From contig QHZE01000460.1 of assembly GCA_003225335.1 (NCBI GenBank), positions 1-54,357 of the forward strand: 54,357 bases of DNA, given 5' to 3'. Source of the DNA: Acidobacteriota bacterium. Lineage in GTDB: Bacteria; Acidobacteriota; UBA6911. Below, piece by piece: positions 3,198 to 43,826 of this stretch. The position numbers and the translations under genes are program-made. The notes beneath the pieces are model-generated. The model ran no database searches and had not been told where the DNA came from. It saw only the letters and a list, made by a program, of their open reading frames with translations. Position 1 is the stretch's first letter, and each line of letters starts with the position of its first letter.

Positions 3198-3608
3198 GTG
3201 TATCTCAAAATCGACCACATCGGGATCGCCGTGCGGTCCCTGGAAGCTGCCCTGAAGGTCTACTGCCAGGGATTCGGTTTGCGGACAGACCACGTCGAAG
3301 AGGTTGCGGATCAGAAAGCACGTGTGGCCACGTTGCCGGTAGGTGAAACCCGGCTGGAGCTTCTCGAAGCCATGGAAGAGGATTCACCGGTTGGCAAGTT
3401 CATCGCCAGGCGTGGAGAAGGCCTGCATCATATCTGCTTCCGGGTGGAGAATCTGGAAGAGGAATTGAAGAAATTAAAAGCGGCGGGCGTGAGGCTGATC
3501 GACGAAATGCCGCGTCCGGGCGCCAGGGACTGCCTGGTGGCCTTCATTCACCCGTCCAGTACGGGTGGAGTGCTGGTCGAGCTCTCGCAGTCGAACTCCA
3601 CAAAATGA
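3198..3608 (+). CDS. mce: Methylmalonyl-CoA epimerase
   Basis: IDHIGIAV, GEGLHHICF, AFIHP..TGGVLVEL. GTG start with AGGAG/GAGG upstream; adjacent to meaB. Confidence 0.93.
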   Translation: MYLKIDHIGIAVRSLEAALKVYCQGFGLRTDHVEEVADQKARVATLPVGETRLELLEAMEEDSPVGKFIARRGEGLHHICFRVENLEEELKKLKAAGVRLIDEMPRPGARDCLVAFIHPSSTGGVLVELSQSNSTK

Positions 3609-3788
3609 AAACCACCGATGAACACAGATGAACACAGAGCAACGCAGCCGCAACCCAAAAAATCTCACCACGAAGACACGAAGAAATCCTTTGCGATTCT
3701 TCGCGTCTTCGTGTCTTCGTGGTGAATAGGATGGAATTTGCAGTCGTGCAATTTGTCATTTTTCATTTGTCATTGGTCATTGTTCATT
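3599..3788 (+). repeat. Composite intergenic repeat (modules A-B-C-D)
   Basis: CACAAAATGAAAACCACCGATGAACACAGATGAACACAGA + GCAGCCGCAACCCAAA + CACCACGAAGACACGAAG..CTTCGTGTCTTCGTGGTG + TTTGTCA/TTGGTCA heptamers. Confidence 0.85.
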
Positions 3789-3806
3789 CGCAAAAATAAG
3801 GGTTCT

Positions 3807-4670
3807 ATGGAACAGGTGAGAATCGGAGTCATCGGAGGCAGCGGGTTGTACGATATGGAGGGAATTGCCGACCGATCAGAGCTCTCCATGGGGACACCGT
3901 TTGGGACGCCTTCCGACGCGTTCGTTCTCGGAACCCTGGAGGGGAAGCGCGTGGCGTTTCTCGCCCGGCACGGAAGAGGCCACCGGATCCTTCCGAGCGA
4001 GTTGAACTTTCGCGCCAACATCTACGCAATGAAGATGCTGGGTGTCGAGAGAATCCTGTCGGCGAGTGCCGTAGGATCCCTCAAACAGGAACTGGCGCCG
4101 CTGGACATTGTTCTACCGGATCAGTTCCTCGATCGAACTAGCGGGCGCATTTCCACGTTCTTTGGCGAAGGTCTCGTGGCGCACGTTTCCTTCGCCGATC
4201 CTGTCTGCCCGGAACTGATGGATCGCGTCTACCGCGCCGCGGCGGCAATCGGGATCGGCGCGAAAAAGGGGGGCACGTACGTGTGCATGGAAGGCCCGGC
4301 CTTTTCGACCAAGGCGGAATCGCACCTGTACCGGAAGTGGGGGATGGATCTCATCGGCATGACAAATCTGCAAGAGGCCAAGCTGGCTCGGGAAGCGGAG
4401 ATCTGCTACCTCACGATCGCGCTCGTGACGGATTATGACTGCTGGCACGAAGCTCACGAATCGGTGACGGCCGAAATGATTATTTCAAACTTGCAGCAAA
4501 ACAGCCGGAATGCGCAGGCCATTATCCGGCAGACGGTGCGCGACCTGCCGGACGCACGGCTATGCAAATGCAGCGAGGCCCTCAAACACGCCTTGGTCAC
4601 AGACAGACGGGCCGTCCCGGCGCAGACGCGCAAGAAGCTTGAGCACATTGTGGGCAACTACCTTTCGTAA
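3807..4670 (+). CDS. mtnP: S-methyl-5'-thioadenosine phosphorylase
   Basis: IGVIGGSG, FLARHG.GH, MEGPAFSTKAES, GMTN, VTDYDCW. Start ATG 3807. Confidence 0.93.
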   Translation: MEQVRIGVIGGSGLYDMEGIADRSELSMGTPFGTPSDAFVLGTLEGKRVAFLARHGRGHRILPSELNFRANIYAMKMLGVERILSASAVGSLKQELAPLDIVLPDQFLDRTSGRISTFFGEGLVAHVSFADPVCPELMDRVYRAAAAIGIGAKKGGTYVCMEGPAFSTKAESHLYRKWGMDLIGMTNLQEAKLAREAEICYLTIALVTDYDCWHEAHESVTAEMIISNLQQNSRNAQAIIRQTVRDLPDARLCKCSEALKHALVTDRRAVPAQTRKKLEHIVGNYLS

Positions 4671-4680
4671 GGGGCGAAGC

Positions 4681-5589: not shown

Positions 5590-5611
5590 CAGAAGATTGA
5601 ACCGCGTATTA

Positions 5612-7058
5612 ATGCGGGCATTCGCCAGGCATGCCCACCACCTCGAAAGGCCGCGAAAGCTCCACCGGCGCCAGAATGGCGCCCTGATAACACTGCTTTT
5701 CGTTCTCGCCCAGCCCGCCGCTCATTCCCAGGGCAAGAAACTCAGCACAGAGGATGACGCGAAGATCTGGGGTGAGGCCAGGGGCTGGTTCAAGAAGGGG
5801 GAGGCATTGATTGGAACACCCAAAGAAAACAGCGACGAGCAGGCTGCATTCTTTCGCAAGGCACTGGAAGGCGGCGGCGGAGTTTGAAAAGGTACTTAAA
5901 CTCGATCCGAAGTTTGAAGGAGTTCATTTCTTGCTGGCATCCGCGTACAAATCCCTGGGCGATAGCGGCGCGGCAATCGCGGCGCTCGATGCGGGCCTTC
6001 GAAACAAGCCTAAAGACCTGGAAATGCTCAGGGCCCTGGCGTATCTGCAAATGGGGACCCGCGATGAGATGTCGGCGCTGCCCACTCTGCAACGTATTCT
6101 GGAACTCGCGCCCGCCGATCCCGGCGCCTCGATGGATCTCGCGTTGCTGTATCAGAAAAGCGGCAAGCTGGACGAAGCCCTGTTACGCTATCAGGATGTG
6201 CTTCTCCTCGATACCGGAAACTTTGCTGCGCATTACAACCTTGCGCTCATATACTGGAAGCTAAAGAAGTTCGCCAGCGCTACGGAAGAGTTGGAGCTGT
6301 GCGCTCGACAGGCGCCGGAAAACATGGATGTCCTGGAACAACTGGGCGACTTCTATGCCTTCCAAAACCAGCACGCCAAAGCCGTCGAAGCCTACAACAA
6401 GGCTCTGGCGAAAGCTCCGGCGCGCGCGTCCCTCTACTCCAAATCCGGATTCAGCCTGGCAAGCTTGAACAGGGATGACGAGGCAATTGCGGCTCTTGAA
6501 AAGGCGGTTCAGATGGATAACACCAAGGCAGAATCGCTCTATCTTCTCGGAGATCTTTACGCGGACGTGAAAAAGTACGATGAATGCATCGCAGCCTATA
6601 AGCGCGCCCTGGAACTGAATCCTCGCTTGAAGGAAGTTCATTACAATCTTGGGACGGTTTACGCAGAACGGCAGCAACTGGAAGATGCCGCGGCTGAGCT
6701 CAAGGCTGCGGTACGGCTGGATCCCGAGTACGCCTCAGCCTGGTCGAATCTGGCCATTGTGAGCGAGAAACTCGGCCTCGATGACGCCGCGATAGAGGCG
6801 TACAGGAAGGTGATCGCCCTGGGCAAGGGCCAGGCCAGCAACTACTTCCGTCTCGGGATCCTGTACGCCAAGAGGAACATGGGCGACCAGGCCGTAACAA
6901 ACCTCGCAAGGGCCATCGAGCTCGATCCCGAAACGTACCGTCAGATTCTTCGGGAGGAGATCAAGAAGGTACACTCCGCCCTCGACAGCATCCGGTATAC
7001 CGAGCCTTTCGCGCGGCTGCTGACCGGCCCGCCCCCCGCGCCTCCCCCACATCCGTAA
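5612..7058 (+). pseudogene. Exported TPR-repeat protein, frameshifted near 5870
   Basis: The signal-peptide-like N-terminal ORF (ends 5887) and the multi-TPR ORF (ends 7058) are in different frames, and the join lacks most of one TPR unit. Confidence 0.65.
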
Positions 7059-7244
7059 CAAATGACAAATCACAAATGAACAGTGACAAATAGAAGTCAG
7101 AAGTCCGGACAACGAACTGCGATTTGTCATTTTTCATTGGTCATTTGCCAAATCTCTCTCTGCGGGATCTGCGTCTCTGCGGTGAGATTTTTGGGTTGCG
7201 GCTATGCCGCGCCAGGTGCATCTGGGTTCATCTGTGGTCTGATC
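7057..7244 (-). repeat. Composite intergenic repeat (A-B-C-D on minus strand)
   Basis: Minus strand reads ACCACAGATGAACCCAGATG + GCGCGGCATAGCCGCAACCCAAAAA + TCACCGCAGAGACGCAG + AATGAC-heptamer hairpin. Confidence 0.85.
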
Positions 7245-7255
7245 TTGTGCAGTTT

Positions 7256-15916: not shown

Positions 15917-15966
15917 AGAGACACGGAGAAAAACCTTGTCTCCGTGGCTAAATCGGTTGCGGTTGG
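15917..15966 (-). repeat. Short CACAGAGA-type hairpin plus module B remnant
   Basis: AGAGACACGGAG...GTCTCCGTGGC followed by GGTTGCGG. Confidence 0.5.
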
Positions 15967-16032
15967 GTGGGCCGGGGCGAAGCGTTTCCTATAGCGGGAC
16001 CACACGAGAGACAAAGGCGGCCTAGGATTGGC

Positions 16033-17025: not shown

Positions 17026-17323
17026 GGTGCCTCCCTTCGCGCGTTCTGGAACGCTATTATAGATTACGCAAAACAACAAAAGGTTTCCGAATCTGATGTT
17101 TGGAGCTCGGTGAAGACCGCAGCCCGAAGGCCAAACACCCCACACCTTTTGAAGCATTGCTTTGAATGTGCTCCGATCAAGTCCTGATGGAACACAGCAG
17201 GCAGGGATGCACCGAAATTACACGGTAACCCGGAAACGGAAGCTCCGTGTGCACCCGTGCCTATAGTTCATATCGGCGCGAGGCCCAAAAGCATTTCGAT
17301 GCCGTGGAGAAATATGCTAGCTT

Positions 17324-21961: not shown

Positions 21962-22023
21962 TGAAACCACAGATGAACACAGATAAACACAGATCTGTGT
22001 TTATCTGTGGTTTCATTTTGTCC
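21962..22023. repeat. Stand-alone module A palindrome
   Basis: GAAACCACAGATGAACACAGATAAACACAGATCTGTGTTTATCTGTGGTTTCATTTTGT. Confidence 0.85.
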
Positions 22024-29240: not shown

Positions 29241-30452
29241 GTGAATAGACGCGCGGTGCTGCTCGCCTTGGGTTTCATTTTTCACTCGGACGACAAACTC
29301 CTCTTTTCCTGGGAAGATCAGGGTCGCGCTTTCAGCGCGCAGATTGCTCCGGGGCTGAAAATCAGAACCGAGGTGTCGTCACAGTTCCTACATGTGGGAC
29401 AGCAGTTCAGCATCCTGTACAGCCTTGTAACCCAGCGGTACCCCACCGAAATCGATATTGAACCTCAGCAATATTCCGGATTCTGGACTGAGATCGTGCC
29501 CCTGGCGGAGCAAACGCGTACGATCACGCGCTTGCTCGATGGACGTCCTACCCACGAATTCCTTCTGCGACAGATAATAGCCTCCCCATTGGAAGAGGGC
29601 GCGCTCGGACTTCCACCGCTGTCGGTGAAGATCATGATGGCCCGCAGTGCGGCCGCCGGCGCCCCACGCTGGGATGTTGTTGCGAAGTCGAATCCCGTGT
29701 CTCTTACGGTGCTTCCTTTGCCGGCGTCAGAGGCCGGAGCCACGACATCACTTTTGGTGGGGACCCTGGAAGGGCGGCTGGAAGAAAGCAAGCGATCGCA
29801 GGGAAGGGAAGTAATTCTCGACTTGCAGGGGACTGCCAACCTCGCATTCTTTCAGCCTCTTGACTGGTTCCGCGGGACCGGGGTGGCTTTCCTTGCTCCA
29901 CGCCTGGTCCAGGCAGAGTCTTTCGTCGAAACCTGGGACACGGGGGATAGACGGCGGCTCACGATGCAGCAGCACCACCGGTGGTCGATCTGGATGATTC
30001 CCCAGGAGGGGGCCGCGAGGCGTGTTGAAGATCTGCAGATTCCTGTCTTCGACCCGGGCAGAGGCACATGGACGAACGTCCGCATCCCCGGAATCGACGT
30101 CAGGGCGCCGTCCTCCACGACGCGCCCTGCGGCCCCGGCGCCCCTGCCTTCGTCCGAGCGCGGGTCCGCCGGTTTCTTGGGGCGCTACCGTCGCGCTCTT
30201 TGCGCCGGGGCGGTCCTGGCGCTCGTGTCTCTGGGGGTCTGGCTCCTTCGGAAGCGCAAGACGGAGCGTGTCCTGCATCACTGGATGGGATCGAGCCTGG
30301 AAAAACTGCAACAGCAATCGTCAAGAGCGCCGCGCTCCTTTGTCGAAACCGCGCACAAAATTCTGGAGCGATACGCCGAAGAAAACCATCTCATACCGGG
30401 TTCCGGAGACAAGAACTCGTCCACCGATGGGCTGGCGGGGACGTTCCAATAA
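29241..30452 (+). CDS. BatD-like protein
   Basis: GTG start with AAGGAG RBS, VGQQF, P..EG.L.LPP, L.V.PLP, G.ANL, C-terminal TM. Confidence 0.65.
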   Translation: MNRRAVLLALGFIFHSDDKLLFSWEDQGRAFSAQIAPGLKIRTEVSSQFLHVGQQFSILYSLVTQRYPTEIDIEPQQYSGFWTEIVPLAEQTRTITRLLDGRPTHEFLLRQIIASPLEEGALGLPPLSVKIMMARSAAAGAPRWDVVAKSNPVSLTVLPLPASEAGATTSLLVGTLEGRLEESKRSQGREVILDLQGTANLAFFQPLDWFRGTGVAFLAPRLVQAESFVETWDTGDRRRLTMQQHHRWSIWMIPQEGAARRVEDLQIPVFDPGRGTWTNVRIPGIDVRAPSSTTRPAAPAPLPSSERGSAGFLGRYRRALCAGAVLALVSLGVWLLRKRKTERVLHHWMGSSLEKLQQQSSRAPRSFVETAHKILERYAEENHLIPGSGDKNSSTDGLAGTFQ

Positions 30453-30800
30453 ATGACCAATGAGCAATGACAAATAGAGGTCAGAAGTCCGGACAACGAA
30501 CTGCGATTTGTCATCTTTCATTGGTCATTGGTCATTTGTCATTTGTCATTTTTTTCTCTGTCCTCCCGGCGACTCTGCGGTGAATCTGTTTGGTGCGGCC
30601 GAGCTGATCTGTGTTCATCTGTACTACTAACCCGAAAATCCTTTGCTGGCAGGAAAGGATTTTTCTTCGCCGAAATCTTCGCGCTCTTCGCGGCTTCGCG
30701 GTGAATCTCTTTCACCGCGAAGGCGCGAAGCACGCGAAGAAAACGCGAAGGACTTTAGTTTGGTTGCCGCTTTGCTGATCTGTGTTCATCTGTGGTTTCG
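30451..30800 (-). repeat. Tandem composite repeat with two A-B units carrying different bodies
   Basis: Minus strand reads [ACAGATGAACACAGATCAGCAAAGCGGCAACCAAA][~150-bp body shared with 40721-40878][ACAGATGAACACAGATCAGCTCGGCCGCACCAAA][C-D body shared with 7057-7190]. Confidence 0.85.
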
Positions 30801-30816
30801 TTCAAACTGAGTAAGG

Positions 30817-31665
30817 ATGGCGCCTGTGGAAATAATTTCGGCAGTGATTCTCGGAGTGGTTCAGGGATTGACTGAACTTCTTCCCATCAGCAGCTCGGCC
30901 CACCTGATCGTCGTCCATCGGCTCCTCGGCTGGGAGGCGCAAGGACTGGTCTTCGACGTTGCCCTCCATGTGGGAACGTCGGCGGCAATTCTGGCTTACT
31001 TCTGGAGAGACTGGATAGACCTGGCGCGTGAAATGCTGCTCGGAATCAGGGAGCGGCAGTTGTTGGGTAACGCTCAAAGGCGCCTGGCGTGTTTTCTGAT
31101 TGTCGGAACTTTGCCCGCGGCGGCGGCCGGCGTGGCGCTCGGGGTTTATATCGAAACCCATCTGCGTTCCCTTCTTATTCCGGTGTTCACCCTGGTTGCC
31201 TTTGGCGCCCTCATGTATTTTGCGGAACGCTGGAGCAGGCAGGACCGCTCCCTGGAGAAGCTGACCTGGGCAGATTCTCTTTGGATCGGTCTCAGCCAGG
31301 CTCTCGCTTTGATTCCCGGGGTGTCCCGAAGCGGGATAACCATCAGCACGGCGCTGGCAAGGGACATAGACCGGATCTCGGCCGCACGCTTCTCTTTTCT
31401 TCTTTCCACGCCTGTGATCGTCGGCGCCGGAATGCTCGAGGGCTGGCATCTGGTGAAGGCGGCGCGGACCCCCGCGGGATCACCTGGTCCAGAAATCCAA
31501 TGGCTGCTTATGGCAGTAGGAGCCGCAACCGCGGCGATCACGGGCTTTTTGTGCATTCGTTATTTTCTGCGCTACCTGCAAACCCACACGCTCACGCCTT
31601 TCGTCATCTATCGAATCATCTTCGCAGGAGTCACCCTGCTCGTATATCTTACTTATTCCAAGTAA
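30817..31665 (+). CDS. uppP: Undecaprenyl-diphosphate phosphatase
   Basis: LGVVQGLTELLPISSSAHL, ALIPGVSRSGITI, ARFSFLL. Confidence 0.95.
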   Translation: MAPVEIISAVILGVVQGLTELLPISSSAHLIVVHRLLGWEAQGLVFDVALHVGTSAAILAYFWRDWIDLAREMLLGIRERQLLGNAQRRLACFLIVGTLPAAAAGVALGVYIETHLRSLLIPVFTLVAFGALMYFAERWSRQDRSLEKLTWADSLWIGLSQALALIPGVSRSGITISTALARDIDRISAARFSFLLSTPVIVGAGMLEGWHLVKAARTPAGSPGPEIQWLLMAVGAATAAITGFLCIRYFLRYLQTHTLTPFVIYRIIFAGVTLLVYLTYSK

Positions 31666-31687
31666 GCGCGGTTTGTTTCGGAGATCA

Positions 31688-31800
31688 GAAGCTGTGAAAA
31701 AAATCCATCCGCCGTAGAGGCAACCCGCCGACTGGCCAATAATGGCGCGGACTTGCGGGCGGACACCAGCCCTACGACGCTCCAATTTTTTCACAACCTC
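31688..31800. mobile_element. MITE-like element inserted in a GGAG-REP and containing a GTAG-REP-like core
   Basis: Ends GAAGCTGTGAAAAAA / TTTTTTCACAACCTC; the flanks rejoin to GGAGATCAGGCTTTAGCCTG. Confidence 0.6.
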
Positions 31801-31934
31801 CTCAGGCTTTAGCCTGCTGACGGCGCCCTCTGCTGTTCCGCTCCCCTGATTCTCATCAGGGTATACGTCAACATCCCTAGGCCATGAGTCGAACACCCTA
31901 GGGTTTTTTTTCAGGAAACAAGGGAAAACCCCAG

Positions 31935-31963
31935 TTGCCTAAAACGCAATGGTGGCGTAGCCT
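31935..31963 (+). promoter_or_regulatory. Possible sigma70-like promoter
   Basis: TTGCCT-N17-TAGCCT just upstream of ATG 31972. Confidence 0.3.
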
Positions 31964-31971
31964 ATGAGAGT

Positions 31972-33660: not shown

Positions 33661-33805
33661 GTTCGGAGTTCAGCCTTCAGGCTGCACAGGTCAGTGCAGG
33701 CTAAAGCCTGAACTCCATGCCTGCTTCAATCAGGTTTGGTTCAGGTTCGGATCTCAGCCTTCAGGCTGCACTGGCGCCGGGCAGGCTGAAGCCTGAACTC
33801 CAAAC
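33661..33805. repeat. Two GGAG-type REP doublets between convergent genes
   Basis: GGAGTTCAGCCTTCAGGCTG...CAGGCTAAAGCCTGAACTCC, present twice (second copy slightly degenerate). Confidence 0.85.
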
Positions 33806-33809
33806 AGGA

Positions 33810-35144
33810 TCACTTCCGTCCCCGCTTCCGCTCTTTGATGCTCTCCAGGATTTCCTTGATCTGCCGCTCCGCTCCCTGACCAGTAGGATAGTAGTACTGC
33901 CGCCCTCGAAGCGATTCCGGCAGGCATTCCATGTCCGCGACCTTTTCGTCGAGATCGTGGGCGTACTGATATCCTTTGGCGTAGCCCAGTTCCTTCATCA
34001 GTCGCGTGGGCGCGTTCCGGATGTGAAGTGGAGGAGGCTCATTTATGGTTTTCTGCACGTCCTCGGCAACGGCGGAATACGCGGTGCAAAGAGAATTCGA
34101 TTTGGGCGCCACGGAAAGGTATACGGCCGCCTGCGCGAGAGCGAGTTTGCATTCGGGCAGCCCCACTATCTGAACCGCATCGGCGGCATCCAGGGCAACA
34201 CGGAGCGCCCTCAGATCGGCCACACCGATGTCCTCCGAGGCGAAACGGACCATGCGGCGCGCGATGTAGATCGGGTCTTCTCCCCCCTCCAGCATTCTTC
34301 CCAACCAGTACAGCGCGGCGTCAGGATCGCTGTTCCGCATGGACTTGTGGAGAGCGGAGATGAGGTTGTAGTGTTCTTCTCCCGCTTTGTCATAAAGCAG
34401 GATCTTCTTCTGCAGCGCGGCTTCGACGTCGGCTTCCGACAGAGCCACCGGCGATCGTCCGGAAGCGAGAGCGACGGCGATTTCGAGAGCATTGAGGGCG
34501 ATGCGCGCATCCCCGTTGGCATAGATCGCCAGCCGCCGCAGAACTTCATCAGAAACCTGAATCGGAAGCTTGCCCAATCCCCGTTCCGGATCGTTAAGCG
34601 CGCGCCGGAGAATCGCGACAATGTTCTCCGGGCTGAGCGGGTTCAGAACATACACCTTGGCTCGTGAGAGGAGAGCGCTGATCAGTTCAAAGGACGGGTT
34701 CTCCGTGGTCGCGCCTATAAGAACGACAACCCCCGATTCGACATAAGGGAGAAAGGCGTCCTGCTGAGCCTTGTTGAAGCGATGGATTTCGTCGACGAAC
34801 AGAATCGTCCTGGACTTGAGTCGCCTGTGACCGGTTTCCGCCTCGGCCATTACCGCCTTGATCTCTTTGATCCCGGAAAGGACGGCGCTGTAAGAAACGA
34901 ACCTCGATTCAGTCTCTTGAGCGATTATGCGCGCAAGAGTGGTCTTGCCAGTTCCAGGCGGTCCCCAGAGGATGATCGAACGGAGTTGATCCCGTTCGAT
35001 CATCTCTCGCAGCACCTTTCCCTCGCCTATCAGGTGCGACTGGCCTGCGACTTCGTCAAGCCTCCGGGGACGCACGCGCTCCGCCAACGGCGCATCCTCC
35101 CCAGGGGACGGCGGCTCAACATCGGGAAATAGTGAACGATTCAT
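33810..35144 (-). CDS. rarA: Replication-associated recombination protein A (RarA/MgsA)
   Basis: [56 protein letters not shown]. Confidence 0.96.
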
Positions 35145-35177
35145 AAGTGCGAGGGTGTAATTGTATCACGCCCGTTT

Positions 35178-35263
35178 TGATTGCGGATTGGCGATTGCGG
35201 ATTGTCTAATGCAAGGTGTCCGTTAACTCCAAATCCGAAATCCGCAATCCCAAATCCGCAATT
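35178..35263. repeat. GATTGCG-family heptamer hairpin
   Basis: GATTGCGGATTGGCGATTGCGGATT ... AATCCGAAATCCGCAATCCCAAATCCGCAAT. Confidence 0.8.
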
Positions 35264-36059
35264 AGAGATCCCTTTGGCGGAGCGCCTCGAAGAGAAGGAT
35301 TGCCCCCGCACTCGCCACATTCAGGGATTCGACCCCGGGCGCCATCGGAATGCGAACCGCGCGGATGCCGCTCCATTCGATTCCCGGAAGTCCCTGGCTT
35401 TCGTTCCCGAGCAGAATCGCCGTGGGCCTCGTCAAATCCATTTTTGAGTAGGGTTCTCCAGTGCGAGCGTCGGCTCGGACGGGCTGGAGGCCGTGTCTCC
35501 CGCAATATTCCAGAATGTCCTTTGGCGCCAGCTCTTCCACGACCGGAATACGGAAGTAGGTCCCGGCGCTGGCGCGGATGCATTTCGGGTTTCTTGAAGA
35601 GACGGTGCTCGTCGTCGTGCAAACGAGCGCCGCCGCGGCTGCTGCTGCCGCGCGCAAGAGCGTTCCCAGATTCCCGGGATCCTGAATGGCGCACGCGCAA
35701 AGGACCACAGGATTGGGCCCCAGGCTGATGTCTGCAAGGTTGAGACGTGGAACACGCACCAGGGCGAGCGCCCCCTGGGGCGAAAGCACTTCCGAAAGAG
35801 ACTTCATCAGCTTCCGGTCGGCGCGGTAGATCTTCACGCTCTTCGATCGCAAGCGCGAAATCAGGAGCTGCTCGCGATCTCTCTTTCCGAATCCTTCTGA
35901 AATGACAACGGCATCGATTGAGTGTTCGGCGGCTTCTTCCAGGACGCGCAGTCCTTCCGCGAGCACCAGATCGCGGGGCGCCCTCCGCGACCCGGAGGCA
36001 ACAAGACGGATTCTCCGCACAAGCGGATTCTCTTTACTTGTGATTTCAGGGAAGGACAT
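35262..36059 (-). CDS. TrmH/SpoU-family RNA methyltransferase
   Basis: ITS.EN, IQDPGNLGTLLR, LGNE..G, IPM..GVESLNV. ATG 36059. Confidence 0.92.
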   Translation of the reverse strand: MSFPEITSKENPLVRRIRLVASGSRRAPRDLVLAEGLRVLEEAAEHSIDAVVISEGFGKRDREQLLISRLRSKSVKIYRADRKLMKSLSEVLSPQGALALVRVPRLNLADISLGPNPVVLCACAIQDPGNLGTLLRAAAAAAAALVCTTTSTVSSRNPKCIRASAGTYFRIPVVEELAPKDILEYCGRHGLQPVRADARTGEPYSKMDLTRPTAILLGNESQGLPGIEWSGIRAVRIPMAPGVESLNVASAGAILLFEALRQRDL

Positions 36060-36073
36060 GGATGGGGAGGGTG

Positions 36074-36916
36074 TCAGCTCCTCTTCGCCGTGAGGGAGGC
36101 CGCACGGCCGCGCCGCAGGCTGCCCCAGACGACGCGTTCGATGGGAAAGCGTTCGTTCTGCAGCAACTCGGAAGCGAGCTTTCGAGCCAGGGAGTCCTGC
36201 TTCTTGCTGTCCGCCTTGTTTATGTAAGGGACAATGCGCATGCGCGGTTTCCAGCCCTTGCACACACCGTCGGGATGGAGAAGGAGCGAGGCCGCCAGCT
36301 CGGGCGTCAAGATCTGCCCTTGCTCCAGGGAGTACCGCTCAAAGGCTGTTTCCCAGCGAAAGAGCGTTTCCGGCCCCAGAGGCTTGTTCAAACAATCCAG
36401 ACCGATTACGGGAATGAGATACTCCCCCTCTTCCATCAACACCGGCTCCCCATCTCGAGGCATTTTCAAGGACATGCTGCGAGCGCCATCGGCCTCGTTC
36501 AGAATAAGCGGAAAGTCCGCGCGGTCGAGTTTCCGCGCAAAATCCGGAGCCACGCCCCCAAGCAGGCCAGGCGCAATGGACGGGCGGGTCGCCACCAGAA
36601 TACGGACCCAGTCGAGCCCGCTGTGCAGGCTCCGTTCCAAGAGCGTCCTGTGCAGATTCGGATCGTCGCAGGCCACCTGGACCAGCCCCTTCTCCGGGTG
36701 CGGCGGGTGTATGCGGACAGTCGTCGTATAGATCACGGGGAGAGTAGAGGAATACTCTCGGGCCAGCTTGAGAATCAGAGCGGTTTTTCCGCCGCCGCCG
36801 ACGAAATTGACGATCGCGGGTATCTGGAGGCCGAATTGCTCAGCAAACAGGCCCATGATTTCTACCGCGAAAGCGCTTTCGGGCGCTGGCCGGCATGACT
36901 CTCCGATTCCAAGCAA
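36074..36916 (-). CDS. yqeC: YqeC-like accessory protein of selenium-dependent molybdenum hydroxylases
   Basis: FVGGGGKT, YTTT, EADGAR..LK.P...EP, INKAD. Start uncertain. Confidence 0.78.
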   Translation of the reverse strand: MLGIGESCRPAPESAFAVEIMGLFAEQFGLQIPAIVNFVGGGGKTALILKLAREYSSTLPVIYTTTVRIHPPHPEKGLVQVACDDPNLHRTLLERSLHSGLDWVRILVATRPSIAPGLLGGVAPDFARKLDRADFPLILNEADGARSMSLKMPRDGEPVLMEEGEYLIPVIGLDCLNKPLGPETLFRWETAFERYSLEQGQILTPELAASLLLHPDGVCKGWKPRMRIVPYINKADSKKQDSLARKLASELLQNERFPIERVVWGSLRRGRAASLTAKRS

Positions 36917-37857
36917 TTCCAGGTCCGCCGGATAATGTAAGGCGTCTTGCCCTGAGACTCAAAGTAGGTTCGGATCAAGAGCTCCGCCACGAGACCCATC
37001 AGAATGAATTGCACACCGAGGATAAACAGAAAGACCGCCAAGAGAAGAAAGGGATTGTTATGGGCCTTTGTTTGATTCATGTACTTTTCCACGAGCGTCC
37101 AGCAAGCAAAGAACAGGCCTCCGGCACAGGACAGGAGCCCCGCTCCCCCAAAAAAGTACATGGGTTTTGTGGAGTAGCTCCCCAGCAGCTTCAAGGTGAT
37201 CAGGTCCAGGATCACCTTGAAACTCCGAGACAATCCGTATTTGCTTTTCCCGCGCAGCCGCGGATGATGGCGCACCGGTATCTCCGTAACTCTCGCGCCC
37301 GCCCAGGACGCGTATATGGGAATAAACCGGTGCATTTCTCCGTAGAGACGCACGTGCTGGAGCACTTCGCGCCGATAACCCTTCAATGTGCAACCGTAGT
37401 CGTGCAGCCGCACGCCGCTGATGTGGGAAATCAGCAAGTTTGCCAGCTGTGAGGGGAGTTTGCGGTCGAGCCAGGGATCCTTCCGATCGCGCCGCCAGCA
37501 ACTGACGACGTCGAAGCCTTCATCCAGTTTCATCAAGATAGATGGAATATCGGCGGGATCGTTCTGCAAGTCCGCATCGAGCGCGATAATGATCTGTCCC
37601 TGGGCGAAATCAAATCCGGCGGCCATCGCCGCGGTCTGGCCGAAGTTCCGGCGAAATTCAATCAATTTGATTCTCGGGTTTTCTTGCGCCCGCGCCTGCA
37701 AGTAAGCGCCGCTTCCGTCCGTACTGCCGTCGTCCACAAACACGATCTCATAGTTCCTGCCGATCGAGTCCAGCGTGTGCGATAACCTGGCGAGCAGAGG
37801 CTCGAGATTGTATCTCTCGTTACAGACCGGAATGATGACAGAGATCATTTCGTTCAT
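36862..37857 (-). CDS. GT2 polyprenyl-phosphate glycosyltransferase (ArnC/GtrB-like)
   Basis: SVIIP..NE, VDDGSTD, RNFGQ.AA, DADLQNDP.DI, and two C-terminal TMs. Confidence 0.9.
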   Translation of the reverse strand: MNEMISVIIPVCNERYNLEPLLARLSHTLDSIGRNYEIVFVDDGSTDGSGAYLQARAQENPRIKLIEFRRNFGQTAAMAAGFDFAQGQIIIALDADLQNDPADIPSILMKLDEGFDVVSCWRRDRKDPWLDRKLPSQLANLLISHISGVRLHDYGCTLKGYRREVLQHVRLYGEMHRFIPIYASWAGARVTEIPVRHHPRLRGKSKYGLSRSFKVILDLITLKLLGSYSTKPMYFFGGAGLLSCAGGLFFACWTLVEKYMNQTKAHNNPFLLLAVFLFILGVQFILMGLVAELLIRTYFESQGKTPYIIRRTWNCLESESHAGQRPKALSR

Positions 37858-38834
37858 GAAAAATCGGCCTCGAAAGCGGCCATTTCCCGAGCGTCCCGCT
37901 TATCCTTGAAGAACGCATAGAGCACGCCGCCCGGAATGGCGGACAGAATCATAGTCGAAAAGTATAGAAGGCTCAGGGCCAGACACGAGGCTGGCGACAC
38001 GCCAACGGCGCTGAACAAGGCTCTGAAAGCGTAGTCGCGCAATCCCATGCCATTAAGGCTGACGGGGATCATCGAGACGAGAGTCACCACAGGCACAAAC
38101 GCCAGAAAGTACAAGATTGAAAGATCGAGCCGCAGCGCTTCGGAAATGAGCCAGGTCACCGAAATCACCAGGAATTGGTTGACTAGAGAGATTGCCAGGG
38201 AACCCAACAGAACATTCCGCTCGCGGCCGAGGATCTGAAAGGCGCTGGAGAGTCTGTCCATCTTGCCTGCGATCCGCGGCATCCTCATTCGATGAAGCAG
38301 GCTGGTAAGCAGCCGGTGCACCGAGGGGGTGAAGATGGCCCCATTAACGAGCAGGAAGGCCGCGAATGCCCCCCATACGATGAGCGAGACCGGGACCCCG
38401 GGAATGCTCACGGGGTGCGCAAGCGTGGCATAGCAGGCGATGATCATCATGGCCAGCATCCCCGCGTCGCGGTCGAGGAACGTCGCTGCGAAACTCTGCG
38501 CGTATTGCCTGGAGGGCTTGCCGGCGTAGTACATCTTGACAACATCCCCTCCCACCACCGTCGGGAACGCGAGGTTGAAGAACAGTCCGATGCAATAGAT
38601 CTTCAAGAGCTGCGCCAGGGAAGGAACGGGCATCAGCGGGCGCATCAACAGCCGCCAGCGAAAGAGGCAGACGTAGTGGCCGACACAGAGCACGGCAAAG
38701 CCCAGGAGCAGCAGATTGAAACGCGCAGTGCGCAGCGTGGCCCAGAACTCATGGAAATCGACTTTGCGGAAGAGGAGGTAGAACAGGGCCACAGTCACCA
38801 TAGTCTTTAGCAGCGCGGCGAGAACGTTCTTCAT
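37854..38834 (-). CDS. Lysylphosphatidylglycerol synthase TM-domain (UPF0104) putative flippase
   Basis: Polytopic; RW, FFN..FP..VGGD, DR, PVSLNG.G.RD. Confidence 0.82.
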   Translation of the reverse strand: MKNVLAALLKTMVTVALFYLLFRKVDFHEFWATLRTARFNLLLLGFAVLCVGHYVCLFRWRLLMRPLMPVPSLAQLLKIYCIGLFFNLAFPTVVGGDVVKMYYAGKPSRQYAQSFAATFLDRDAGMLAMMIIACYATLAHPVSIPGVPVSLIVWGAFAAFLLVNGAIFTPSVHRLLTSLLHRMRMPRIAGKMDRLSSAFQILGRERNVLLGSLAISLVNQFLVISVTWLISEALRLDLSILYFLAFVPVVTLVSMIPVSLNGMGLRDYAFRALFSAVGVSPASCLALSLLYFSTMILSAIPGGVLYAFFKDKRDAREMAAFEADFS

Positions 38835-40558
38835 GGGTTTTCACGCCCTTCCTTCATGTTGGGTTCGAGAGCGGGCCGGTTAGAGACCAGCAGTAATTCC
38901 TGCTCTGCCCAGGACTCCTCGTCCAGGAGCAGGTGGAGCTGCGTGATAAGCCGGGGGCGGCGATCCAGAACATAAAGAATCAGGTCCCGTGTTCCGACAA
39001 AATAACTGTAATCCTGTTCTGTGAGAATACAGAAGACCGCCCTCGTCGAACGAAAGCGCTGCACCATGGACTCCGCATCAAACTCCTCAAAGATAGGACG
39101 GCGAAGATAAAAAGCCATGCTCGGCAGAGCCGCGTCATAATAACCCACCTGATCTTCCGGCTTGGATTGCGACGCTATTTGCCGGCACATTTCCTTCACA
39201 GGCCGTAAAGGCTCGATTCCTGGAATGTAAATCGAGGCCGCCAGCAAAAGCAAAAGCCAGATCGAGCACGAGAGGGTCCCGTAGCATCCAGACAGATTTC
39301 CGCGAATCAATTGCCAGGCCAGTGCGAACGAAGCAACCAGCAATACAGCCGAAGGAAGGTAGACCAGAACCGGGAAAAGATCCGGAAAAACGGAGCGCAT
39401 CAGGATTATCATGTATAGGCACAACCCAAAGACGAGGAGAAGCAGGAGGAAAAAAGCACACATCCATGGGTAGTTCGGTCTATTTAAATTAGAAGTTACT
39501 TTAATGAGTGCGCTCCGCCGCAGCGCGCCGCCCAAGAGGACGGCGAGGAGGGGATACATGGGGGCGATATAGTATTCCTGTTTGTTCTTGGAGAGTGTGA
39601 AAAAAAGAAACACGAAGGCGCACCACACCAGGGGAAATCCATACTGGAAAGCGCTTACCGGGCGGAGATTCTCCCTCTCTGACCAGAAGTAGAAAGCCGC
39701 AGCAACTGCGAGGATCGACCACGGAAAGAAGTCCGCGAAAAAAGTGGGCACGTAGTAGAACGGCCCTCGCATTGGCCCGAAACTCTGAGTGGCGAAACGT
39801 CCCAGGTTGTCCTTGAGGAAAAAGGAAGCGATGTAATCCCGGCCGTGAGACCGGTAGATGAGAGCGTACCAGGGCAGCACTGTCGCGGCCAACAGAACGA
39901 GACCCCTAAAGGGTCGCAAGCGACGCCAGGATAAAGAGAAACTTCGCGTAAGGACCAACCAGAGGGAGAAACTCGCCCCCGGCAGGACCCAGGCGACGGG
40001 GCCTTTGGTGAGGAAACCGCATCCCAGAAAAAGATACAGCGGGACCCAGCTCTTCCATGAAGGGGACGGACGACGCAGGGCGTGGACAAAGAAGTAGGCG
40101 CTGCCCGTGAGCCAGAACAGCAGCAGAATATCGATAGGAAGCTTTCGCGCCAGGATGAAGAACCGGGGCGTTGTGCCGATCATGACCGCGGCCAGGATTC
40201 CCGCAAAGGGGGAGAAAAGAGCGCGGCCGATCCCAAAGGTAAAAACAATGACCCCCAACGCGGCGAGAGCCCCCGGCAGCCGAACGGCGAATTCGGATAC
40301 CCCGAAGAGATTATACGAAGCGAGGACCAACCAATATGTGAGCGGCGGCTTCTGTGGCCGCAATTGGTGGTTGAAGCGCGGCGCAAGGTAGTCTCCTGAT
40401 TCGAGCATTTCCCGGGGCGTCTCCGCGTAGAAGGCTTCGTTGGCGTCCCAGAGAGAGGACGTCCCGAGATGGATGAAGTACGGCAGCGCTACTGCCGCCA
40501 GCACCACAAACGGCGCGCCGCGCGAAACCCGGCGAGAATTGAAGGGCCAAACCATCAT
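38831..40558 (-). CDS. ArnT/PMT-like (GT-C) membrane glycosyltransferase
   Basis: D.NEA.YAE..REM..SGD, KPPL.YW, EFAVRLP, TKGP, K..YYI.P.YP. Confidence 0.88.
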   Translation of the reverse strand: MMVWPFNSRRVSRGAPFVVLAAVALPYFIHLGTSSLWDANEAFYAETPREMLESGDYLAPRFNHQLRPQKPPLTYWLVLASYNLFGVSEFAVRLPGALAALGVIVFTFGIGRALFSPFAGILAAVMIGTTPRFFILARKLPIDILLLFWLTGSAYFFVHALRRPSPSWKSWVPLYLFLGCGFLTKGPVAWVLPGASFSLWLVLTRSFSLSWRRLRPFRGLVLLAATVLPWYALIYRSHGRDYIASFFLKDNLGRFATQSFGPMRGPFYYVPTFFADFFPWSILAVAAAFYFWSERENLRPVSAFQYGFPLVWCAFVFLFFTLSKNKQEYYIAPMYPLLAVLLGGALRRSALIKVTSNLNRPNYPWMCAFFLLLLLVFGLCLYMIILMRSVFPDLFPVLVYLPSAVLLVASFALAWQLIRGNLSGCYGTLSCSIWLLLLLAASIYIPGIEPLRPVKEMCRQIASQSKPEDQVGYYDAALPSMAFYLRRPIFEEFDAESMVQRFRSTRAVFCILTEQDYSYFVGTRDLILYVLDRRPRLITQLHLLLDEESWAEQELLLVSNRPALEPNMKEGRENP

Positions 40559-40680
40559 TCTATCTTAATCGTTCAGTCTCGGGCGGAACTGGTGTCTTTC
40601 CTTTCCCAAGCTGCCATTGCAGGCACCAGAATCACTTGACCTCAGATTTCACGAACAAGAATTCTCGTTCACGTGGATTG

Positions 40681-40943
40681 CACAAAATGAAACCACCGAT
40701 GAACACAGAGCAGCCCAGCCGCAACCAAACTAAAGTCCTTCGCGTTTTCTTCGCGTGCTTCGCGCCTTTGCGGTGAAAGTCCAGCCCAGGATTCACCGCG
40801 AAGCCGCGAAGCGCGCGAGGATTTCGCGAAGAAAAATCCTTTCCTGCCAGCAAAGGGTTTTCGGGTTAGTAGTACAGAGCAGCCCAGCCGCAATAGTGGA
40901 GATCTGTGTTCATCTGTGTTCATCTGTGTTCATCTGTGGTTTC
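40681..40943 (+). repeat. Composite repeat: module A palindrome enclosing a ~150-bp body between 20-bp direct repeats
   Basis: ACAGAGCAGCCCAGCCGCAA at 40705-40724 and 40874-40893; the body is an inverted copy of 30618-30777. Confidence 0.88.
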
Positions 40944-40956
40944 GTTTACGATTCCA

Positions 40957-43458
40957 TCAGAAGAGTGATTTCTGGATTTCTCCCAGCACTTCGTCTGCCG
41001 ATCGTGCGCGGGGACGGCCGGTCAGGTCAATTTCCTTTCTTTCCAGACGTTCGAGAATCTGGCTGGCTCTCCGCAGCACTTCACGTGGGAGACCCGCCAG
41101 CCGCGCAACCTCGATGCCGTAACTCTTATCCGCGGTTCCGGCAACGACCTTGCGGAGAAACACGATTTCATTCCCCGCCTCCCGGATCGCCATGCAGTAG
41201 TTTTTGACTCCCGGCTGGACGTCGGCCATTTTCGTAAGTTCGTGGTAGTGAGTAGCAAAGATCGTCTTGGCGCGGTGCTGCGGATTTTGCGCAAGATACT
41301 CCGCGACGGCCCAGGCGATGGACAACCCGTCAAACGTTGCTGTCCCTCGCCCCACTTCATCCAGGAGGATCAGGCTTCCATTGGTCGCAGTGTTGAGGAT
41401 GTTCGCCGTTTCTATCATCTCTACCATGAAGGTGGACTGGCCGCGTGCCAGATTGTCCGAGGCGCCCACACGAGTGTAGATGCGATCCACGAGCCCTATT
41501 CTCGCCTGCCGGGCGGGGACGAAGGAACCCATTTGAGCGAGGATCACAATGAGCGCCGTCTGGCGCAGGAAGGTCGATTTCCCCCCCATGTTCGGTCCTG
41601 TAAGAATGAGGAGCTGATCCGTGGTCGTATTCATGTAAAGATCGTTGGCAATGAACGGGCGGCTTTGGAATTCAACCACGGGATGGCGTCCTTGCTGGAC
41701 GCAGATCTCGTCGCTCTCAGCCAACTGGGGGCGGACGTAATCATTCTTTATGGCCACTTCAGCCAGCGCAGCGTAGACGTCGAGCTCCCCGAGCAGACGT
41801 GCCGTAGCCTGGATCCGCCCCGCCTGTCCGGCGATAGTCTTTCGTACCTGGTCAAAAAGGTCTTTCTCCAATTCCGCAATGCGCTCTTCGGCGCGGAGAA
41901 CCTTCTCTTCGTATTCCTGAAGCTCCTCGGTCACAAATCGCTCACAGTTCACCAGGGTCTGCTTGCGGACGTAACCCGTGGGGACCTGGGGCAGATTGGG
42001 CCTGGTTACCTCGATGAAATATCCGAAGACCTGATTGAATTTGACTTTGAGCGATTGGATCCCGGTTCGCTCGCGCTCCCGAGCTTCCAGTGAAGCGATG
42101 TAAGTCTTACCGCTTCGTCGAATGGCCCGCAACTCATCCAATTCCGCCGAAAACCCCGAACGGATGATTCCAGGATCCAAAGAGGAAGCAGGGGGCTCCT
42201 CTGCTATAGCATTCTGGATCAGTTGAACGACGTCCGGGAGATCATCGAGTTTCGATCGTATCTGCTGCAGTGTTGCGGCTCCGCATGACTCCAGCGACGA
42301 CCGGATCGCAGGCACGGCGCAAAGCGAGTCCCGCAATGCCAGCACATCGCGGGGAGATGCGGTGCCTAGCGTAACCCGGCTGACCAAGCGTTCCACATCA
42401 TGGATTTCTCCAAGTCTCCGAACCAGCCGGTCGTGCCCCACGACGTCCTTTGTGAGCACTTCTACCGCATCCAGACGCTTGTCGAGCTCGCCGGCGTTGA
42501 GGAGCGGAGTCAGCAGCCACGACTTCAGCAGCCGCCCACCCATTCCAGTCCGCGTCACGTCGAGAACAGACAGAAGAGAACCCTTGCGGTCGCCCTCCAT
42601 TGTTTCGATCAGCTCCAGGTTTTTGACGGTGGAGTTGTCGAGTTTCAGATAGTCCCGGGGTTCGAAGAACCGCAGTGCGGCGATCTTGCCCAGCTGCGAG
42701 AGCTGGGTCTCACGGATGTAATGAATGAGAGCACCGGCCGCCGATATGGCGAGGGGGTGGTCTTCGCAACCGAAACCTGCCAGCGTGGCTACACTGAAAT
42801 GCTCCAGGAGGAGCCGAAAAGCATAATCTGCATTGAATGCCCAACCGTCGAGCGGACTCGCGACCCACTCGCCCGGCCAGTCCCTGGCAAGCTTCTCCTT
42901 GAGCGGGTTGCTGCCGTCTTCGGGAAGCAGTAATTCACGGGGCCGGAACCGGCTCAGCTCGTCAAGCGACCTGTCCCACGCGTCTGCACCGGTCAATTCC
43001 GTAGTCACGAAGTCTCCGGTCGAGAGATCGATGAATGCCAGCCCGGACCCTTCGCCGGTCAAAATCAAACTTCCCAGGTAGTTGTGATCCTTGGGTTCGA
43101 GCAGCACTTCCTCCACTACAGTCCCGGGGGTGAGTATGCGAGTGACTTCTCTGTGAACCAGTTTCCTGGCAGTCTTGGGGTCTTCCACCTGCTCGCAAAT
43201 GGCAATCCTGTAGCCCTTTCTAAGAAGCCGGGCGATATACCCGTCGACGGAGTGATAGGGCACCCCGCACATCGGGACGGGGGCCCCGGCCTTGTCTTTG
43301 TTTCGAGCGGTCAGGGTGATCTCCAGTTCGCGGGAAGCCACAACAGCGTCTTCATAGAACATCTCATAGAAGTCCCCCAGGCGGAAGAAAACCATCTTTC
43401 CGGGAAACCGGCGCTTTATTTCATGGTACTGCTTCATCATGGGGGTCAGATCTTCCAC
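40957..43458 (-). CDS. mutS: DNA mismatch repair protein MutS
   Basis: TPMMKQY, GDFYE.F, TGPNMGGKST, STFMVEM, DEVGRGT, FATHYHEL. Confidence 0.98.
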   Translation of the reverse strand: MEDLTPMMKQYHEIKRRFPGKMVFFRLGDFYEMFYEDAVVASRELEITLTARNKDKAGAPVPMCGVPYHSVDGYIARLLRKGYRIAICEQVEDPKTARKLVHREVTRILTPGTVVEEVLLEPKDHNYLGSLILTGEGSGLAFIDLSTGDFVTTELTGADAWDRSLDELSRFRPRELLLPEDGSNPLKEKLARDWPGEWVASPLDGWAFNADYAFRLLLEHFSVATLAGFGCEDHPLAISAAGALIHYIRETQLSQLGKIAALRFFEPRDYLKLDNSTVKNLELIETMEGDRKGSLLSVLDVTRTGMGGRLLKSWLLTPLLNAGELDKRLDAVEVLTKDVVGHDRLVRRLGEIHDVERLVSRVTLGTASPRDVLALRDSLCAVPAIRSSLESCGAATLQQIRSKLDDLPDVVQLIQNAIAEEPPASSLDPGIIRSGFSAELDELRAIRRSGKTYIASLEARERERTGIQSLKVKFNQVFGYFIEVTRPNLPQVPTGYVRKQTLVNCERFVTEELQEYEEKVLRAEERIAELEKDLFDQVRKTIAGQAGRIQATARLLGELDVYAALAEVAIKNDYVRPQLAESDEICVQQGRHPVVEFQSRPFIANDLYMNTTTDQLLILTGPNMGGKSTFLRQTALIVILAQMGSFVPARQARIGLVDRIYTRVGASDNLARGQSTFMVEMIETANILNTATNGSLILLDEVGRGTATFDGLSIAWAVAEYLAQNPQHRAKTIFATHYHELTKMADVQPGVKNYCMAIREAGNEIVFLRKVVAGTADKSYGIEVARLAGLPREVLRRASQILERLERKEIDLTGRPRARSADEVLGEIQKSLF

Positions 43459-43533
43459 GCGCGCGCTCTCACAGCTAACTACGTGATTTCATAAATACCG
43501 CAAACGTATTTTCCCAAATAAGTCGGGCGCCCT

Positions 43534-43826
43534 GAACCACAGATGAACACGGATCCGTGTTCATCTGTATCCGAAGATACCGAGTGAGGCAACCAAGTCC
43601 ACTTGGTGGAAACAAAGTTCACAAATCGTTCAAGTTTTGTATCATGGCCGGGACGGTCATGCCACGAAGCCATCGTGGCACGGGCGTCTCGCCCGTGAAT
43701 GACTGGGTGGTGTACGGGTACTCGTTATCACTAGCTGCGCCATTGCATTCCCCGGGACGGCGGGACCACATTTTCGTGCGCTTTGGGTGTGCGCCGCACA
43801 TCTGAGACTGTGTTTTCATTTTGTCC
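43534..43826. repeat. Composite region with inward-facing A/B ends around a GTGG-type REP pair
   Basis: GAACCACAGATGAACACGGATCCGTGTTCATCTGT..GGCAACCAA; REPs at 43643-43665 and 43675-43697; degenerate A-B on the minus strand at 43781-43826. Confidence 0.6.

Follow-up and report, generated by a model that had tools for sequence, protein, structure and literature searches.

Elements of the IS608 type follow common rules: their ends are asymmetric and carry subterminal hairpins, and their insertion is polar, 3' of a short target. For classical IS200/IS605 insertion, an orientation bias related to the lagging strand is expected. The BOX elements of Streptococcus pneumoniae (boxA-boxB-boxC) are non-coding, keep a fixed order of modules and have no known enzyme. 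In cyanobacteria, Elhai et al. are said to have described in 2008 heptamer repeats (STRR) as well as small dispersed repeats (SDR) of 21-27 nucleotides (nt) that look mobile (Genome Res 18:1484). As set out in parts of PMC3733652, REP/REPIN elements are imperfect palindromes of 20-40 nt, tagged at one of their ends by GTAG or CGTC, a REPtron is a RAYT gene flanked by such repeats, and BIMEs are mosaics with linking motifs in fixed order. Here we analysed a contig of 54,357 nt from an Acidobacteriota bacterium (assembly GCA_003225335.1, contig QHZE01000460.1), hereafter the window, in which an earlier note had described a non-coding composite of four modules in the order A-B-C-D. We found that B is the 5' end of small gene-less units that close with a second conserved terminus, T, and that A is one of the repeat arrays in which these B..T units sit. 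Taking the evidence as a whole, we lean towards reading the pattern as mobile insertion units.

Termini and insertion register of the B..T units

The source genome (G000; 7.54 Mb in 795 contigs, 58.7% G+C), of which the window is contig C792, contains 210 exact B sites. B is a 5-bp mini-hairpin, with an A.C pair in 191 of 280 copies, followed by the tail AACC(N)AAAA. The flanks were analysed for the 207 sites with full flanks, and the sequences behind B were clustered for 206. In the 60 nt upstream of B, an A unit was located at 77 of the 207 sites; all of these units share the strand of B and none is on the other (chance about 0.4%). In 54 of these 77, A and B are separated by 11 nt. When the 846 ends of A arrays were followed, 173 ran into B and 152 into inverted A. 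The information content was 0.4-1.2 bits upstream of B and at most 0.5 bits directly after AACCNAAA, which is the sharp downstream boundary that the earlier note had suggested testing for. Behind B, 22 clusters were distinguished, nine with several members (72, 43, 26, 20, 14, 11, 3, 2, 2) and 13 singletons. The earlier note had named two findings that would speak against it, namely a B without positional link to A across the genome and descent of all composites from one fixed miniature inverted-repeat transposable element (MITE); since the link between A and B holds and several sequence clusters follow B, neither was observed.

The second terminus, T, had escaped the earlier note. It consists of a hairpin AAATCCTTT..AAAGGATTT followed by TCGGGTTAGTAGTA or TCGGGTTAGTAGTAC, and the 3' end reads ..TTTTCGGGTTAGTAGTA. 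The last 11 letters of T are present in 47 exact copies in G000, and 197 T-like sites were counted against 46 for a reversed-pattern control. Of the 210 B sites, 49 are followed by T on their own strand and 4 by T on the opposite strand, the median distance being 153 nt. The two ends are different sequences without terminal inverted repeats; at the 5' end 4 nt precede the B hairpin, and at the 3' end about 14 nt follow the T hairpin. The inverted A and A' arms lie outside the unit and are also present as empty palindromes.

With slightly looser B and T patterns, 87 B..T units were gathered. The 9 nt to the left and the 9 nt to the right of each unit were joined at 42 offset pairs, and the uninterrupted word was sought elsewhere in the genome. 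At the best cut, the joined flanks were found uninterrupted for 33 of the 87 units. It was revealed that one register diagonal alone scores (33, 30, 26, 23, 12, 5), the other 30 offset pairs reaching at most 3. The best cut extends from 4 nt before GCNGC (CAGA, generally CRGM) to ..GTAGTA. When a unit is excised exactly there, the joined flanks make up either a perfect A repeat or a closed A palindrome (..GAACACAG joined to ATCTGTGTTC..), and for some units a CACGAATT repeat. The units lie at a CA^C(A/G) step, where the junctions have a microhomology of no more than about 4 nt; about 4 nt (CAGA) are shared by both junctions in A targets and only 1 nt in CACGAATT targets. Closed A..A' elements no longer than 600 nt number 133 in the genome, and 52 of them are simple palindromes of up to 80 nt. 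Together with the exact cuts that restore palindromes, these elements bear out the proposal that closed A palindromes are empty sites.

The 87 units were assigned to nine full-length families (28, 7, 7, 6, 5, 5, 5, 5 and 2 members) and 17 singletons. The families have the same termini and different bodies, the best pair identity being up to 97.6% with a median of 87%, and a single fixed MITE does not account for the DNA behind B. The family with 28 members is the one present in the window. The idea that a polar B is inserted into A together with variable downstream DNA is supported in part, insofar as B is the 5' end of the inserted unit and A its target. It does not stand that A-B-C-D is one element, since C and D are independent repeat-hairpin modules and T belongs to the unit.

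Other forms and roles of the termini were considered and set aside. A hairpin of B with its inverted copy B' holds as the general form in G050, a relative from the same phylum, but at only 2 of 56 cross-phylum loci; in G000 a few closed composites take this form, a strict B' being present within 900 nt at 6 of the 91 strict frames of B, and a looser 9-mer search for B/B' pairs gave mostly noise. An RNA closing stem between B and T (AACC-AAAA / TTTT-GGTT) is not kept in the verrucomicrobial genome G428. For B' as a sigma-54 promoter, the GG-N10-GC spacing fits, but the flanking consensus fails and the direction is antisense into genes. Nothing supported a tRNA-like 3' end (..GCCGCA-A-CCA).

Occurrence of the termini in other genomes

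The multi-copy state of B is patchy among relatives. A strict B1 pattern gave 99 matches in G000 and only 4 in 40 relatives. A 17-base B frame, with 131 matches in G000, was found in 12 of 400 other genomes sampled across the phylum and was multi-copy only in G050 (40) and G028 (6). In G050, a discrete repeat of about 237 nt (46 matches, 79-100% identity) has the B hairpin as its 5' terminus, B being paired there with B' across an AAAAA loop; at least 8 of the 46 matches begin at position 36 and hence are without the B hairpin. The orthologous junction upstream of the MTAP-like gene was read in the loci of five relatives, where it is a short spacer without the 190-nt composite. In about 497 kb from 80 metagenome loci around this gene (59-77% protein identity, nothing above 77% being returned by the scan with the MTAP-like protein), the full B frame was not found, and the bare 13-mer of B was present once, in coding-looking sequence.

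An exact 20-base B pattern (GCAGCCNRGCCGCAACCAAAA) was detected in 64 stretches when one genome of each of 185,579 species was searched, whereas about 2 were estimated by chance. About 8 of the 64 look coding by eye. In most of the remaining stretches, B stands between a tandem-repeat tail (..CAC(A/G)(G/A)(A/C)) and a different, lineage-specific repeat array. According to the record titles, at least six phyla are represented, including Acidobacteriota, Verrucomicrobiota, Planctomycetota, Desulfobacterota, Thermodesulfobacteriota, Chloroflexota and others. At three loci (L029, L030, L042) on contigs of 36-139 kb from a bin titled Saccharimonadales, B lies beside CACGGAG/CAGAGG repeats as in Acidobacteriota; these contigs may be misbinned, which calls for caution in counting phyla. 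Five cross-phylum genomes contained 39, 17, 16, 8 and 4 copies of B, in which the hairpin arms and the A.C mismatch are constant and the 3-nt loop is variable.

Units with both ends were also recognized outside G000. In G428, with contigs of up to 431 kb, they start with ..CTAGC-GCAGC-NNR-GCCGCAACCAAAA and end with ..GGAT(A/T)GTAATAC. The T-like end occurs 38 times, compared with once for the control, and at 14 B sites it follows on the same strand at a distance of 190-410 nt. Bryobacterales records show the arrangement CCCCACAGA, then B with its body up to ..GGTCTAGTAGTA, then TATGTGGGG, between two hairpins. Viral contigs gave no evidence of a vector: among 13 matches, 11 were in coding-looking sequence by eye and 2 were of the element type.

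Search for a cognate enzyme, RNA families and alleles

Y1_Tnp genes, which encode transposases of the HUH (Y1) class, were present in all six B-bearing genomes searched and also in 6 of 14 control genomes, so their presence is weak support for an HUH enzyme. Neither B nor T was convincingly present near ten Y1 loci from five genomes. In G000, a complete gene for a 155-aa Y1 (HUH) transposase (L001, G000:C191:4444-4791) has a different repeat family (..GGGGCGACTCAGGAAAGCCCAGGGCGC..) on both sides, with a word count of about 78 in the genome, and looks like part of a REP/RAYT-like system of its own. G428 carries at least nine near-identical copies of a minimal IS200-like element of about 556 nt with a 152-aa Y1 transposase (L237, L241, L245), and the near-identity suggests that this element may have been active recently.

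One B..T unit of G428 (L234, G428:C105:53341-54089; 737 nt) includes the C-terminal 103 codons of an IS701-type DDE transposase. The 103-aa open reading frame (ORF) is 89% identical to proteins of 411-500 aa with PF01609 and PF13546, and about 145 nt of the unit body are duplicated on both sides of it. We read this ORF as a passenger fragment.

Rfam gave no match at the gathering score in the window, and two composites gave only far sub-threshold matches to miRNA-like hairpins. Of 21 sequencing runs from 16 studies, 20 contained all or part of the window, and 18 contained at least half of the words sampled from it. Reads were placed on 30300-50299 from four runs only as Logan contigs, which break at repeats, and neither empty alleles nor circle junctions were seen in them; contig joints such as 40716>40853 and 40706>43588, with only some 30 nt on each side, could stem from other loci. 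The modules occur in contigs of a metatranscriptome run, where DNA carry-over is possible. Among the papers searched, none had the B or T motifs in a relevant context, the motif matches being primers or unrelated, and the literature on the GxxExxY/S23 protein, STRR and small dispersed repeats described nothing similar.

Copies in the window

The genes of the window are housekeeping genes (DnaE, MutS, MutL, HisRS, GuaA, AccA and others), and every element site that had been cited lies in a spacer between them. Motif B (GCCGCAACCNAAA, at most one mismatch) matched the window at 3647(+), 7190(-) and 40718(+), and three or more matches were reached in none of 100 shuffles of the window. Module A (a 21-mer, at most three mismatches) gave 10 matches, with 0 expected. 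On reading the loci, the described order A-B-C(-D) was recovered at 3599(+), 7244(-), 30800(-), 30622(-) and 40681(+), as were the GCGGC-ATA-GCCGC hairpin, the D heptamers behind C in three loci and the two closed A palindromes (Table 1). Bodies shared by distant loci were likewise confirmed: 30709-30802 and 40686-40779 are 93% complementary, and 7067-7150 and 30451-30534 are 90% identical. The sites that had been given as degenerate copies fared less well. At 15966(-) a degenerate B and a small hairpin are present but no A, at 43826(-) there is only a degenerate cap with a B-like stretch, and at 43534(+) a short closed A palindrome is followed by a repeat of another family.

Table 1. Positions of A arrays, termini, units and modules in the window
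Feature	Position	Strand
A array: cap ACAAAATGAAAACCAC and CACAGATGAA 10-mers; flank/target	3600..3634	+
B terminus: CAGA, imperfect mini-hairpin, then AACCCAAAAAA	3635..3662	+
C hairpin: TCACC..GGTGA caps, arms of CACGAAGA 8-mers	3665..3725	+
D: only the right arm of an ATTTGTC heptamer hairpin	3751..3788	+
A array, degenerate	7215..7250	-
B terminus, B2 flavour: TGGC, GCGGC-ATA-GCCGC (7210-7198), AACCCAAAAA	7188..7214	-
C-type half module, TCACCGCAGAGACGC..	7153..7185	-
Complete D hairpin with a conserved core between arms of AATGACA heptamers; not followed by a T end	7056..7146	-
A array (flank)	30783..30803	-
Complete B..T unit, 161 nt: B variant, C hairpin, T hairpin, ..GTTAGTAGTA	30622..30782	-
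Second unit, no T end: B variant 30611-30588, C-type half module, D hairpin 30452-30550	30452..30611	-
A array, left arm of palindrome	40680..40705	+
Complete B..T unit of 169 nt, from the 28-copy family	40706..40874	+
Truncated second B (CAGAGCAGCCCAGCCGCAA) and 8 nt, adjoining the end of the first unit	40875..40901	+
A' array, right arm; pairs with 40680-40705 in the fold	40902..40947	+
Closed A/A' palindrome, centre CAGATCTG; unoccupied site	21963..22014	.
Closed A/A' palindrome, 14-nt centre; unoccupied site	50158..50219	.
Short closed A palindrome, then a member of a different 109-nt repeat family	43533..43569	.
Degenerate B-like stretch (..CCAACCGCAACCGATTTA) and small CACGGAG hairpin, no A	15925..15975	-

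The two complete units of the window are about 93% alike. The second unit at 30611(-) begins exactly one A repeat after the first, and the composite with the single D arm at 3751-3788 is truncated and without a T end. The composite at 40678-40950 folds with -70.6 kcal/mol (z -9.4) and is closed by its A arms. At the first A array, the TGA stop codon of a glyoxalase-family gene (3606-3608) sits within the A cap (ACAAAATGAAA), and in relatives this gene ends differently. Over three repeats, the A 10-mer CACAGATGAA gives TGA in all three frames of one strand and in none of the other.

Repeat-hairpin modules and other repeats

G000 is full of hairpins whose arms are tandem repeats of 7-10 nt, in many families. 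The genome has five PF13366 (GxxExxY) and about eight PF05635 (four-helix-bundle) loci, 13 in all, and most of them are wrapped by inverted arms of such tandem repeats. Among the arms are some of the C type (C689, C224, C23), of the D type (AATGACA; C9) and of the A type (C512). As hairpins without genes, A, C and D therefore belong to the GxxExxY/four-helix-bundle cassette class, to which B and T are additions. Among 16 loci read in G000, G050 and three other B-bearing genomes, B was directly beside the GxxExxY gene at 3.

The connectors between hairpins have a grammar richer than A-B-C-D. Closed A..A' elements are often flanked by CGTCTGCGTAAACTGCACAAAATG on one side and by B with GTATGAACG on the other, so that A hairpins also stand directly behind a B. 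A connector-like repeat, GCAGGCTGAAGCCTGAACTCCAAAC, is present at 3139-3163, 17119-17143, 33696-33720 and 33781-33805; it is built like B from a mini-hairpin and an A/C-rich tail, often precedes TCACCGCAGAG modules, and its words occur about 200-270 times in the genome. The stretch 43570-43700 is a member of the 109-nt repeat family, with paired GGCCGGGACGGCCATG.. hairpins and genome word counts of up to 143, and is unrelated to A-D. Repeat hairpins of other families, including GATTGCG/AATCCGC heptamers and ATCCTGTA and CACAGAGA octamers, fill the junctions at 851-982, 20874-20961, 35170-35272, 45772-45817 and 47548-47717.

Discussion

We put the chance that the A-B-C-D pattern represents small gene-less mobile insertion units slightly above even. 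The boundaries, polarity, families and target register of the units, their patchy copy number and the conservation of both ends across phyla are observed, and from these we infer that the units move or have moved and that an enzyme encoded elsewhere acts on them in trans. A unit starts with B, in which CRGM is followed by an imperfect mini-hairpin, GC(A/G)GC-NNR-GCCGC, and by AACC(N)AAAA as its tail. It carries one or more repeat-hairpin modules (C, D or others) as variable cargo and ends with the T hairpin and its tail. The units lie in one polarity at CA^C(A/G), within tandem-repeat arms or at palindrome centres, the targets being A arrays here and other repeats elsewhere. Because the 3' end recreates the target, units can be stacked head to tail. 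Later recombination between repeat arms may truncate and shuffle the units, which would explain why T is missing at about three quarters of the B sites.

Several points weigh against this reading. T was found after only about a quarter of the B sites, and an in-register empty counterpart exists for only 33 of the 87 units. These counterparts are paralogous sites and not alleles, at which insertion and precise deletion are indistinguishable. Compensatory change in the B mini-hairpin, which the earlier note had suggested looking for, was not found (beside the A.C pairs, G-C in 68 and A-T in 4 of the 280 copies). By a GC-skew proxy for the replication strand, which is noisy in a fragmented assembly, no strand bias of B was found (65 versus 59, compared with 1507 versus 1017 for genes), and the absence of such a bias argues against classical lagging-strand insertion of the IS200/IS605 kind. 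The phylum labels come from metagenome bins, some of which are possibly misbinned. The earlier note had suggested looking for copies next to HUH, tyrosine or serine recombinase or nuclease genes; no HUH gene, recombinase or other repeated gene with B or T ends was found. In G000, the stretches enclosed by inverted pairs of B, A or F and by long-range B..T pairs contained no repeated gene, the ORFs that they share being translated repeats, although an autonomous copy could be unassembled in 795 contigs. The flanks of the three Y1_Tnp loci of G000 contained no A or B modules, and the end hairpins of the IS200-like element of G428 are unrelated to B and T.

As to the class of enzyme, the most likely one, though with odds well below even, is an HUH (Y1) transposase as known from IS200/IS605 or RAYT systems, which would recognise the B hairpin in single-stranded DNA and cut beside it. 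The asymmetric ends, the subterminal hairpin at each of them, the lack of inverted repeats and the polar target fit this idea. Since there is neither a strand bias nor a matching gene, we keep the assignment tentative.

The junctions themselves bear on another class. In place of an HUH enzyme, a conservative site-specific recombinase or an IS110-type DEDD enzyme might recombine a short core (CAGA / CRG) of a circular form with a repeat arm, and we regard this as improbable. The microhomology of about 4 nt at both junctions with its decaying diagonal of scores, the head-to-tail stacking where the 3' end recreates the core, and the lack of strand bias of B speak for such a reaction, but in the CACGAATT repeats only a C is common to both junctions. 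No such gene was observed beside B or T in the loci read (the IS110 and serine-recombinase families were not searched).

It is likewise improbable that no dedicated mobility is involved and that slippage, unequal recombination and gene conversion among repeat hairpins made the composites, their boundaries being microhomology deletions combined with shared descent. Truncated and chimeric composites are indeed common, with half modules in the window and three quarters of the B sites without T; the body of one unit in G428 is duplicated, no enzyme was found and there is no orientation bias. Such processes leave unexplained, however, the near-identical B and related T in distant phyla amid unrelated flanking repeats and bodies, the single exact register of the empty counterparts, and the bursts of many copies in a few genomes when most relatives have no copy.

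We consider it quite improbable that B and T are sites selected by the host, either for protein binding or as signals of RNA processing or stability, with the hairpins serving as terminators or RNase III targets. B is oriented independently of gene direction, 41 copies being sense and 40 antisense where the spacer is tandem, and with 35 copies in convergent and 32 in divergent spacers there is no shortage in the latter, which argues against a strand-specific role in mRNA. B was not found in 388 of the 400 genomes sampled in the same phylum nor in the orthologous junctions read, Rfam gave no match, and the possible closing stem between B and T is not kept in G428. The very stable folds of the composites, the modules in metatranscriptome-run contigs, which may reflect DNA carry-over, and the stop codon of one gene within an A cap are the observations in favour of such a role.

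It is very unlikely that the units derive from hairpin cassettes of GxxExxY (PD-(D/E)XK) or four-helix-bundle genes and home by repair after a nuclease cuts B: these genes in G000 are wrapped by C-, D- and A-like arms and B is directly beside the GxxExxY gene at 1 of 5 loci in G000 and 2 of 4 in G050, but B was within about 1.5 kb at none of 7 GxxExxY loci in three other B-bearing genomes, no ORF of a GxxExxY-motif nuclease was found near 53 cross-phylum B sites (the sole motif match, a 176-aa ORF, is unrelated by eye), one genome with 8 copies of B, a metagenome bin, gave no PF13366 match, and gene counts do not follow B counts in five genomes.

For the reading as mobile insertion units, a more far-reaching version may be formulated. 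The B..T units might be substrates of an undescribed, horizontally spreading insertion system that recognizes an imperfect hairpin terminus of about 25 nt and CA^C in extruded tandem-repeat hairpins, by an enzyme family not yet linked to transposition. We think this rather unlikely; the terminus that it would use is nearly unchanged from Acidobacteriota to Verrucomicrobiota and Planctomycetota. If true, an undescribed system builds and reshuffles the repeat mosaics in the gene junctions of many soil bacteria.

Repeat hairpins make up a large share of the gene junctions here and in many soil bacteria. A defined unit with two conserved ends, an exact register, empty sites and cargo families makes the question of how they arise and turn over testable. 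The near-identity of the terminus across phyla marks a horizontal spread of non-coding DNA. In practice, the B terminus is a signal by which such regions may be annotated or masked in metagenome assemblies, which break there.

Comparison with known systems

As putative non-autonomous mobile repeats, the B..T units are of a known kind, and their B and T motifs are absent from Rfam and from the literature found. They resemble non-autonomous derivatives of IS200/IS605, known as palindrome-associated transposable elements, and REP/BIME elements in that they are small, gene-less and intergenic, have asymmetric hairpin ends without inverted repeats, show no clear target duplication, insert with polarity beside a short sequence, and vary patchily in copy number between relatives. 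Unlike in REP/REPIN elements, the B tail is AACCAAAA, without a GTAG or CGTC tag, and unlike in a REPtron, no Y1 gene is flanked by B or T. IS200/IS605 elements differ from the units in their replication-strand bias; the units have their target inside tandem-repeat hairpins and one terminus that is nearly letter-identical across phyla, and no TnpA-bearing parent with matching end hairpins was found. A classical MITE has terminal inverted repeats, which the units lack, and no autonomous IS with the same ends was found in the 795-contig assembly.

Like integron cassettes and attC sites, the units are polar, have an imperfect hairpin that could be a recombination site, and are variable in content. 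The integron-style arrangement that the earlier note had considered was not seen (intI was not searched for): the units are scattered in all orientations over hundreds of housekeeping spacers, without an attI array and without ORFs, and on reading, the cores of B and T do not fit RYYYAAC..GTTRRRY. BOX shares with the composites its non-coding nature and fixed module order, but its sequences are unrelated, it is found in one genus, and it has neither a cross-phylum terminus nor a hairpin target. The cassettes of GxxExxY/four-helix-bundle genes have A, C and D hairpins alike, whereas B is not regularly beside those genes. As in cyanobacterial SDR, very small conserved repeats lie within tandem heptamer hairpins, and the D heptamers (ATTGGTC / ATTTGTC) presumably match STRR units. 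Unlike SDR, the B..T units are present in Acidobacteriota and other phyla, and two conserved termini bound a variable cargo.

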